A DNA stretch of 64,000 nucleotides, from NCBI RefSeq assembly GCF_044324875.1, contig NZ_CP172185.1; one strand, given 5' to 3'. The position numbers and the translations under genes are program-made. The notes beneath the pieces were generated by a model. It saw only the letters and a program-made list of their open reading frames with translations, was not told where the DNA came from and did no database searches. Below are positions 60,086-62,184 of this stretch, one piece after another (the stretch's first letter is position 1; every line of letters begins with the position of its first letter). This DNA is from Escherichia coli. Lineage in GTDB: Bacteria > Pseudomonadota > Gammaproteobacteria > Enterobacterales > Enterobacteriaceae.

Positions 60086-60954
60086 GGTTCGTCGTCTTCT
60101 TCTTGTTCAGCAGCTTGTTTTAATTTGCGGTATTCCCCGAGAGTGACAGTAATTTCCGCGCCAAGCAAGACGATACACCATGTCCAGTAGACCCAAACAA
60201 AGAGAATGGGGATCACCGCCAGCACGCCGTAAATGAGCTGATATGACGGGAACATGGTGATATAAAGCGCGAAACCTTTCTTTCCTGCTTCGAACAGGAG
60301 TGCAGCGACAAACGCGCCGACAATCGCGTCGCGGTTAGGTACGCGGATGGTAGGAACAATGCTGTACAGCAACCAGAAGGAGATCCACGACAACAGCAGC
60401 GGAAAAATACGCAGCACGTTGTCGATGACAGTATTGAGATCGCTCGCCCAGCGCAGGGAGAGCAAATAGGAACTGATCGCCAGACTGGCCCCTGCCAGCA
60501 GCGGCCCCAGCGTTAAAATCATCCAGTACACGGCGAACGAGTAAATTTTTGGTCGCGCTCGTTTACTTCGCCAGATGGTATTCAACGCGCTATCGATGGA
60601 GTACATCAACAATAACGCGGTGACGATCAGCCCGCACGCCCCAACGGCGGTCATCTTGTTGGAATTGGCAACAAATTGTTCGATATACCGCTGAATAACA
60701 TCGCCAGTAGCAGGCAGAAAGTTGGCAAAAATAAAGTGACGCAACTGAATGCTGACGTCGGAAAACATTGGAAAAGCGGCGAAAAGCGCAAAAACAACGG
60801 CAACCAGCGGCACTAATGAGAGCAACGAAACATAGGCAAGGTTACCTGCCAGGGTTGTCATGTTGTCCTCATCAATGCGTTGCCAGAGTAGTTTTAGCCA
60901 GGCCCATAGTGGACGGGTACGGTGCCTGGCTTTGTCCTGAATGGTTTTTAGCAT
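60082..60954 (-). CDS. yihY: YihY/virulence-factor BrkB-family inner membrane protein (formerly called RNase BN)
   Basis: 290 aa polytopic membrane protein; overlaps the dtd start. Confidence 0.85.
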
Positions 60955-61059
60955 AACACCTTCGCGAAATAGTCCGGGATGGTGGTTTTATCTTTCACCA
61001 GAATACTGGTAATGCCTAGCTGATTCGCTCCTTCTATATTATCGGCGTTATCGTCGAAG
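60948..61059 (-). pseudogene. yihX: 3' remnant of yihX (HAD phosphatase) truncated by IS1
   Basis: Minus-strand translation ...[36 protein letters not shown] abuts the IS1 left end at 61060; only ~36 codons remain. Confidence 0.65.
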
Positions 61060-61113
61060 GTGATGCTGCCAACTTACTGATTTAGTGTATGATGGTGTTT
61101 TTGAGGTGCTCCA

Positions 61114-61389
61114 GTGGCTTCTGTTTCTATCAGCTGTCCCTCCTGTTCAGCTACTGACGGGGTGGTGCGTAACGGCAAAAGCACCGCCGGACATCAGCGC
61201 TATCTCTGCTCTCACTGCCGTAAAACATGGCAACTGCAGTTCACTTACACCGCTTCTCAACCCGGTACGCACCAGAAAATCATTGATATGGCCATGAATG
61301 GCGTTGGATGCCGGGCAACTGCCCGCATTATGGGCGTTGGCCTCAACACGATTTTACGTCACTTAAAAAACTCAGGCCGCAGTCGGTAA
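61114..61389 (+). CDS. insA: IS1 InsA
   Basis: 91 aa, [43 protein letters not shown]... Confidence 0.9.
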
Positions 61390-61811
61390 CCTCGCGCATA
61401 CAGCCGGGCAGTGACGTCATCGTCTGCGCGGAAATGGACGAACAGTGGGGCTATGTCGGGGCTAAATCGCGCCAGCGCTGGCTGTTTTACGCGTATGACA
61501 GGCTCCGGAAGACGGTTGTTGCGCACGTATTCGGTGAACGCACTATGGCGACGCTGGGGCGTCTTATGAGCCTGCTGTCACCCTTTGACGTGGTGATATG
61601 GATGACGGATGGCTGGCCACTGTATGAATCCCGCCTGAAGGGAAAGCTGCACGTAATCAGCAAGCGATATACGCAGCGAATTGAGCGGCATAACCTGAAT
61701 CTGAGGCAGCACCTGGCACGGCTGGGACGGAAGTCGCTGTCGTTCTCAAAATCGGTGGAGCTGCATGACAAAGTCATCGGGCATTATCTGAACATAAAAC
61801 ACTATCAATAA
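61308..61811 (+). CDS. insB: IS1 InsB reading frame (expressed as InsAB' by -1 frameshift)
   Basis: 167-aa ORF overlapping the insA 3' end in the -1 frame. Confidence 0.85.
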
Positions 61812-61827
61812 GTTGGAGTCATTACCC

Positions 61828-62184
61828 ATAACGTGGATAAAAACGTACGGACGATGCCCCAGTTTTCAACGCAATGGCGACGGCTTCGTCAATAGATGCC
61901 TTATCTGAAGCGCTGGTTTCAATATGAATATCAAGGTTCAGACGGCGGGCTTTATCCCCAAAGGCAGAGAGTTCTTTATCATCCATATTACCAAGAGAAA
62001 AACGCTCGCCATCCAGAACATGGATTTTGACGCCACGTAGATTATTTTCACTTGCGATATCAAGTAAATCAGCAGGCAACACTCTTTCCAGCCGCATATT
62101 TAAATGAAAGGCATAAGCATGTAAATAAAGAGGAAGAGTGTCGACACGTTGTAGAATCTTTCTTGCGTTATTTATTGTCACCAT
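61828..62184 (-). pseudogene. yihM: 5' fragment of yihM (sugar-phosphate isomerase/epimerase-like) truncated by IS1
   Basis: ORF 61822-62184 encodes ~118 native residues then reads into the IS1 right end and stops; follows yihL as in K-12. Confidence 0.6.

Follow-up and report, generated by a model that had tools for sequence, protein, structure and literature searches.

In the 64-kb stretch of Escherichia coli DNA analyzed here (the window), a single IS1 element joins a remnant of yihX to a remnant of yihM, and the sulfoquinovose cassette that separates these two genes in K-12 is absent. Comparison with public contigs of the same clone indicates that this large deletion arose recently and is polymorphic within a single tight clone, and we consider it likely to be an adjacent deletion launched from an IS1 that already resided in yihM.

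IS1 between remnants of yihX and yihM

As a reference we used the glnA-fdoG interval of K-12 (NC_000913.3), which includes yihL-yihY and whose coordinates serve as locus coordinates throughout (L001). The K-12 order is yihL, yihM, yihN, ompL, yihO-yihV, csqR (yihW), yihX and yihY. In the window, the minus-strand genes fabY, dtd, yihY and the yihX remnant are followed by IS1 (on the plus strand), the yihM remnant, yihL and the 3′ part of bipA (Table 1). A preliminary description, made from the sequence alone, had proposed that IS1 joins remnants of yihX and yihM without a flanking target duplication, that a deletion of about 12-15 kb had removed yihN-yihW with the sulfoquinovose genes, and that the last ~36 codons of yihX and the first ~118 codons of yihM remain. 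Alignment to the K-12 yihL-yihY interval bears this out for both flanks, gene identities and order, and for the retained yihX codons; yihM is truncated as described, with the retained part corrected by translation to 119 codons plus one nucleotide.

Table 1. Coordinates of the features discussed in the text. Positions are those of the window unless another sequence is named.
Feature	Position	Strand	Remarks
fabY	58638-59651	-	
dtd	59648-60085	-	
yihY	60082-60954	-	BrkB-family membrane protein, intact, 290 aa; NCBIfam NF002457, 477 bits; 100% to K-12 YihY (tblastn)
yihX remnant	60948-61058	-	codons 164-199 and stop, 111 nt; aligns to L001 19043-19153
IS1	61059-61826	+	complete, IS1A-like, 768 bp; IRL 61059-61081, IRR 61804-61826
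pIRL-like promoter in IS1	61066-61093		
insA of IS1	61114-61389	+	identical to K-12 InsA
insB′ frame of IS1	61308-61811	+	open; one substitution downstream of the frameshift site
A6C -1 frameshift motif of IS1	61363-61371		TTAAAAAAC; joins insA and the overlapping insB′
yihM′ open frame	61822-62184	-	120-aa product; closes Y119-G-stop within the IS1 IRR end
Recurrent bond in yihM	61826/61827		K-12 yihM nt 358, L001 4523; CACGTTATG and AAGGTAAT on its two sides; loci L002, L005-L016
yihM remnant	61827-62184	-	nt 1-358; aligns to L001 4166-4523
yihL	62192-62902	-	GntR-family regulator, intact; GntR-family matches; 99.6% to K-12 YihL
bipA/typA, 3′ part	63119-64000	-	runs off the window end; K-12 synteny confirmed on the yihM side
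IRL endpoint, L005 (NCTC assembly)	L001 8608		in yihO
IRL endpoint, J31	L001 12586		in yihR; its IS1 94.4% identical to the window copy
IRL endpoint, B27	L001 12728		in yihR
IRL endpoint, NT1F10	L001 14097		in yihS
ISEc31 in L046 (E. coli 118UI)	L046 2631-3889		equivalent to window ~61828-61830

Elements of the IS1 family are about 768 bp long with imperfect terminal inverted repeats of about 23 bp (GGTGATGCTGCCAACTTACTGAT / GGTAATGACTCCAACTTATTGAT), and a simple insertion generates a direct target duplication of 8-9 bp. The window element, the only IS1 copy in the 64 kb, has the family's length, both terminal repeats, and insA and insB′ with the frameshift motif, and matches K-12 IS1A at 765 of 768 positions (3 mismatches). 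Both junctions fall at exact IS1 termini, with nucleotide 1 (IRL) on the yihX side and IRR on the yihM side. The two flanks keep the order and orientation that they have in K-12 (colinear also with AR_0067 and L042, introduced below). There is no target-site duplication, since the 9 bp on either side of the element (ATCGTCGAA and CATAACGTG) share no similarity, as would be expected had a rearrangement come after the insertion; the identity of the element as IS1 is unaffected.

Of YihX, tblastn matches residues 161-199 to the window remnant, which is in frame and overlaps the start of yihY as in K-12; the N-terminal 163 codons are gone, and IS1 supplies no in-frame start codon for what is left. 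The first intact gene on the IRL side is yihY, and whatever promoter lay upstream of yihX has been lost with the deletion for yihY-dtd-fabY. An outward or fusion promoter from the IS1 IRL was considered for these genes and rejected, as there is no consensus site on the minus strand at the junction and the spacing from the IRL TTGGCA to the nearest -10-like hexamer is 23-25 nt, too far for a promoter.

FabY has 337 residues versus 329 in K-12 as a result of a tandem duplication of eight residues in its acidic C-terminal tail (58638-58700, minus strand), and the exact protein recurs in just two further public contigs. A 604-aa ORF (56408-58222, minus strand; 617 aa from an upstream GTG at 58261) separates fabY from an alpha/beta-hydrolase gene; it is not present there in K-12 and has no match in Pfam, NCBIfam or PDB sequences. 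Its phosphatase-like C-x5-R motif, GCKSAKDRT, resembles the SopB/IpgD active site, and other E. coli carry 604-aa versions of this ORF or a truncated copy beside a transposase. A strain-specific island by the hydrolase gene holds a 103-aa gene with no family match and a 96-aa HTH protein (NadS and MqsA-antitoxin families), a pair (54500-55102, minus strand) that resembles a toxin-antitoxin module. Between fdhE and the yiiE/yiiF region, the latter only 84-87% identical to K-12, lies a block of insertion sequences (47328-52517), in which an IS21-family element (istA 48123-49769, istB 49543-50541) interrupts the transposase gene of the IS110 family (47328-48122 and 50570-50953) and an element of the IS3 family follows (51160-52517).

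Searching the 64-kb window with the K-12 yih genes and tauE (blastn and tblastn) returned none of yihN, ompL, yihO-yihV, csqR or tauE, and the other yih-region matches were just repeat matches of 35-56 nt. In K-12 terms the absent stretch measures 14,519 bp (L001 4524-19042; genome 4,061,523-4,076,041), in agreement with the 12-15 kb of the preliminary description. None of the RefSeq complete E. coli genomes spans 80% or more of window 44000-61058. The closest flanks are those of AR_0067 and DA33137 on the yihM side (99.6%) and of Ecol_316 and THO-008 on the yihX side (99.3%), and both AR_0067 and Ecol_316 carry a long cassette in which yihR and yihQ are separated by a tauE/safE sulfite-exporter gene that K-12 is without. 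The equivalent interval in AR_0067, one of the closest intact relatives, is accordingly longer, at 15,293 bp, and against L042, a contig of the window's own clone, the loss amounts to 14,654 bp plus 637 bp of distal yihM, or about 15.3 kb in total. As the ancestral cassette of the lineage included tauE/safE, the loss is best given as about 15.3 kb rather than the 14.5 kb of K-12. The tauE/safE gene occupies 8408-9283 in L019, 26948-27823 in L020 and 12273-13148 in L042, where K-12 has about 200 bp; its presence in several E. coli relatives, including sisters of the window clone, means that the K-12 cassette is not a universal reference form.

Before and after states within one clone

To recover sister contigs we used exact-protein look-ups in public assemblies, yielding contigs that differ from the window by at most 2 SNPs per 5-13 kb. 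The deleted state is found in L017 (GCA_958308375.1), which is 100% identical to window 52426-61184 and spans the junction between the yihX remnant and IS1 by 126 nt, and in L027 (Logan ERR1512459, four samples), which equals window 56275-61087 and extends 29 nt past the same junction; a contig of GCA_025289245.1 ends 2 nt short of it. Both junctions of the window recur 100% identical in independent public assemblies and are thus not peculiar to the window assembly. This bears directly on a possible artefact, in which IS1 would be present in both yihM and yihX and the assembler would have collapsed the repeat and skipped the cassette. IS1 is indeed a classic collapsed repeat, and in relatives every draft contig ends at IS1, but the window continues uninterrupted through its other IS elements (47.3-52.5 kb), as one would expect of a finished or long-read assembly; moreover, the artefact would need an IS1 in yihX that no sister has, and the existence of several independent assemblies with the new junction, next to others with intact yihX, fits a real polymorphism. 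We therefore regard an assembly artefact as extremely improbable.

The state before the deletion is represented by GCA_002467655.1, in which one contig (L007) is 100% identical to window 61688-64000 (2,313 bp) and ends in the IRR of an IS1 at the same yihM nucleotide, with all 139 nt of IS1 that can be compared with the window identical. A second contig of this genome (L033) shows 1 mismatch in 8,509 bp against window 52550-61058, and beyond 61058 it continues into intact yihX, csqR, yihV, yihU, yihT, yihS, yihR and tauE at their native place. The remainder of the cassette is seen in L042 (GCA_025525175.1; contig found in at least 20 samples), which runs from yihX through a complete yihN, including yihQ, yihP, yihO and ompL, and ends 15 nt beyond the yihM stop codon, while a contig of GCA_019089345.1 breaks inside tauE. 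Since IS1 occupies yihM in GCA_002467655.1 while cassette genes are still present, IS1 predates the deletion, and this sister together with L042 lends support to the IS1-mediated deletion suggested in the preliminary description. The same observation counts against the reverse order of events, in which the deletion came first (e.g., by illegitimate recombination) and IS1 arrived later at the scar, or IS1 was captured at the break during deletion. Capture at a break has been proposed for some IS5 and IS481 events, and cases of an IS lying at a deletion without a target duplication are described (PMC11708052), but the identical yihM nucleotide is already occupied by IS1 in a sister that has cassette genes, and we judge this order of events very unlikely.

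The contigs of the earlier state end near K-12 5161 or at an estimated ~5366, before the IS1 junction on the IRL side. By arithmetic, we infer that the far IS junction of GCA_002467655.1 and SRR3657334 lies near K-12 5366, at about codon 40 of yihN. Since these contigs stop short of the IRL-side junction, a minor deletion or another IS may already have been present in the immediate precursor. The clone may hold a stepwise deletion series.

Within this clone the rearrangement has two attributes of an adjacent deletion: IS1 was earlier present at one boundary, where its junction is unchanged, and the lost DNA adjoins the IS end in the colinear ancestral order, with the new junction exactly at the IS terminus. 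In the sequence of events that we consider likely, IS1 would first have inserted into yihM after nucleotide 358, a recurrently used site. Later, in one sub-clone, the same IS1 would have undergone intramolecular (replicative) transposition, its ends attacking a target within yihX of the same chromosome, between codons 163 and 164, and on resolution the DNA between the IRL end and this target would have been lost. Such an event would have removed the rest of yihM, yihN, ompL, yihO, yihP, yihQ, tauE/safE, yihR, yihS, yihT, yihU, yihV, csqR and yihX codons 1-163, leaving one IS1 with an old IRR-yihM junction, a new IRL-yihX junction and no target duplication. IS1A-type copies are reported to be the active ones, and intrachromosomal transposition of IS1 to be replicative (PMC12428005).

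The main competing explanation invokes a second IS1 in the same orientation within yihX, with RecA-dependent recombination between the two copies excising the 15 kb and leaving a hybrid IS1 without matching flanks. It predicts exactly the end product seen, the final sequence being the same for both routes such that the sequence alone cannot separate them. Adjacent deletion and recombination between IS copies are the usual reasons for a missing target duplication, the latter being a frequent one (PMC11708052), and many E. coli with IS1 at the yihM site hold IS1 at 40 or more places, making two nearby copies plausible. On the other side, no sister has an IS1 in yihX, the gene being intact in L033, L034, L035 and L042, and an exact-pattern scan found the yihX-IS1 junction in 0 of 5,426 complete E. 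coli genomes. Recombination between two copies would also take one event more than an adjacent deletion, and the nested series with one fixed end seen in other lineages (see below) is a better fit to transposase-driven deletion. We accordingly rate recombination between two copies as rather unlikely, and favor adjacent deletion on the grounds that at the fixed end IS1 was in place before the deletion, that no sister has an IS1 in yihX, that the yihX-IS1 junction is absent from the complete genomes, and that a pattern of one fixed and one variable end recurs in other E. coli. That the step was driven by transposase rather than RecA is likewise inferred from the lack of a second IS1 in the sisters and the nested deletions elsewhere.

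A recurrent insertion site in yihM

The IRR-yihM junction of the window is found in the same orientation in 19 complete E. coli genomes. In the 5 of these 19 inspected at the level of annotation or sequence, IS1 adjoins on its IRL side a different truncated gene of the cassette (Table 1), and this combination of a fixed IRR-yihM end with variable IRL endpoints is what would be expected if one IS end stays in place while the far end varies. Two such genomes, B27 and NT1F10, differ at only 2 of 2,174 flanking positions despite their distinct endpoints, which suggests nested deletions within one lineage. More broadly, the exact 120-aa product of the truncated yihM occurs in 123 blocks of public assemblies.

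Insertions in the opposite orientation were also observed, with IS1 inverted at the same yihM bond in 5 of 9 places among the matches listed, one of them with a flank identical to K-12; at the exact site this orientation is confined to draft and metagenome contigs. Complete genomes yielded neither the inverse orientation at the exact bond nor a simple IS1 insertion there flanked by a duplication of 9 bp, and the lack of the latter counts against the explanation that we favor. The yihX-IS1 junction gave no match in an exact-pattern scan of the GTDB species representatives. The simple-insertion junction is absent from JGI metagenome contigs, but so is the common yihM-IS1 junction, such that this null result is uninformative.

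Flanking haplotypes at the yihM junction differ by up to 2.2%, with differences already within 46 bp. Counting the distinct haplotypes proximal to the junction in the window clone, in L010/L011 and in the K-12-like contig, along with the common haplotype in which two very different IS1 alleles are found, these distinct backgrounds imply at least 5 independent arrivals of IS1, in both orientations. Further IS1 insertions are scattered at other positions over the 5′ third of yihM. Taken together, these junctions portray yihM as a regional target of IS1 with one favored bond. Local base composition (56% AT in yihM and 60% around the junction, compared with 50% for the locus) fits only the regional preference. 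Homology between the IS1 end and the target was considered as a cause of the precise choice of bond and rejected: with GGTAAT 3 nt away from the junction and agreement with IRR at 13 of 23 positions, the similarity is not significant, since the 26-kb locus has 33-52 matches as good as the junction's for each probe and strand, and better ones exist elsewhere.

A second type of element uses nearly the same position. In 139 complete E. coli genomes, ISEc31, of the IS3 family, sits one base away from the IS1 junction as a simple insertion with a TAT duplication at K-12 L001 4520-4522, which probably reflects one ancestral event. These observations raise the possibility, which we put forward only tentatively, that yihM holds a nucleotide-precise hotspot for both IS1 and ISEc31 that acts as a launch pad for nested IS1 deletions and thereby for parallel loss of sulfoglycolysis in unrelated E. 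coli, through target preference and possibly also selection in host-adapted or livestock settings. Within the literature searched, no paper linking yihM with IS1 or insertion sequences was found.

Predicted loss of sulfoglycolysis and known cassette variation

Judging from the gene content of the 64-kb window, the entire sulfo-EMP pathway would be gone, together with the YihX glucose-1-phosphatase and the uncharacterized YihM/YihN pair. By K-12 annotation (PMC12608037), the lost functions comprise the OmpL porin, the YihO and YihP transporters, YihQ sulfoquinovosidase, YihR mutarotase, YihS isomerase, YihV kinase, YihT aldolase, YihU reductase and the CsqR repressor; to these are added the TauE/SafE of this lineage, YihN, most of YihM, and YihX. 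Loss of sulfoglycolysis, and hence no growth on sulfoquinovose, is a sound prediction from this gene content and established pathway knowledge. Growth assays may be less clear-cut, and may not discriminate, given that Nissle 1917, which is without yihO-yihS, is reported to show low growth on sulfoquinovose comparable with that of K-12 (PMC12608037).

Deletions associated with IS1 are a classical and ordinary kind of event, of which this is a new instance. As in the classical adjacent deletions of gal and lac, one IS1 is kept, one junction is unchanged, the other lies at an IS terminus, there is no target duplication, and relatives share a fixed near endpoint with a variable far endpoint. Unlike those deletions, the present one is a natural chromosomal polymorphism within one clone and is known here from sequence, for which RecA-mediated recombination between two IS1 copies would look the same. 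The locus itself is known to vary, with E. coli and Shigella carrying the yih cassette in a long (ompL-yihOPQRSTUVW) or a short form (yihTUVW) (PMC12608037). The window variant maps to this locus as well, flanked by the yihL-M-N side and by yihX-yihY, and adds to the lability of the cassette, but differs in that the cassette is wholly absent, including yihT, yihU, yihV and csqR, and that yihM and yihX are cut. That study ascribes the variation to recombination or horizontal gene transfer, with IS1 and yihM unmentioned (PMC12608037). A further parallel is the reductive evolution of IS-rich E. coli and Shigella, where insertion sequences likewise remove dispensable catabolic clusters; the window also has IS110-, IS21- and IS3-family elements but, unlike those lineages, only one IS1 in its 64 kb.

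What is new here are the exact breakpoints, the evidence from before and after states within one clone, and an IS junction in yihM that recurs and from which several lineages have acquired cassette deletions. The strain is predicted to be without the one route known in E. coli for using sulfoquinovose, an abundant sulfosugar of plants, and its clone offers a natural isogenic set of genomes before and after the deletion with which the contribution of the cassette in vivo could be addressed. On these data, variation in the yih region is produced in part by IS1 acting from one recurrent site, making this locus a testable example of parallel gene loss driven by mobile elements.
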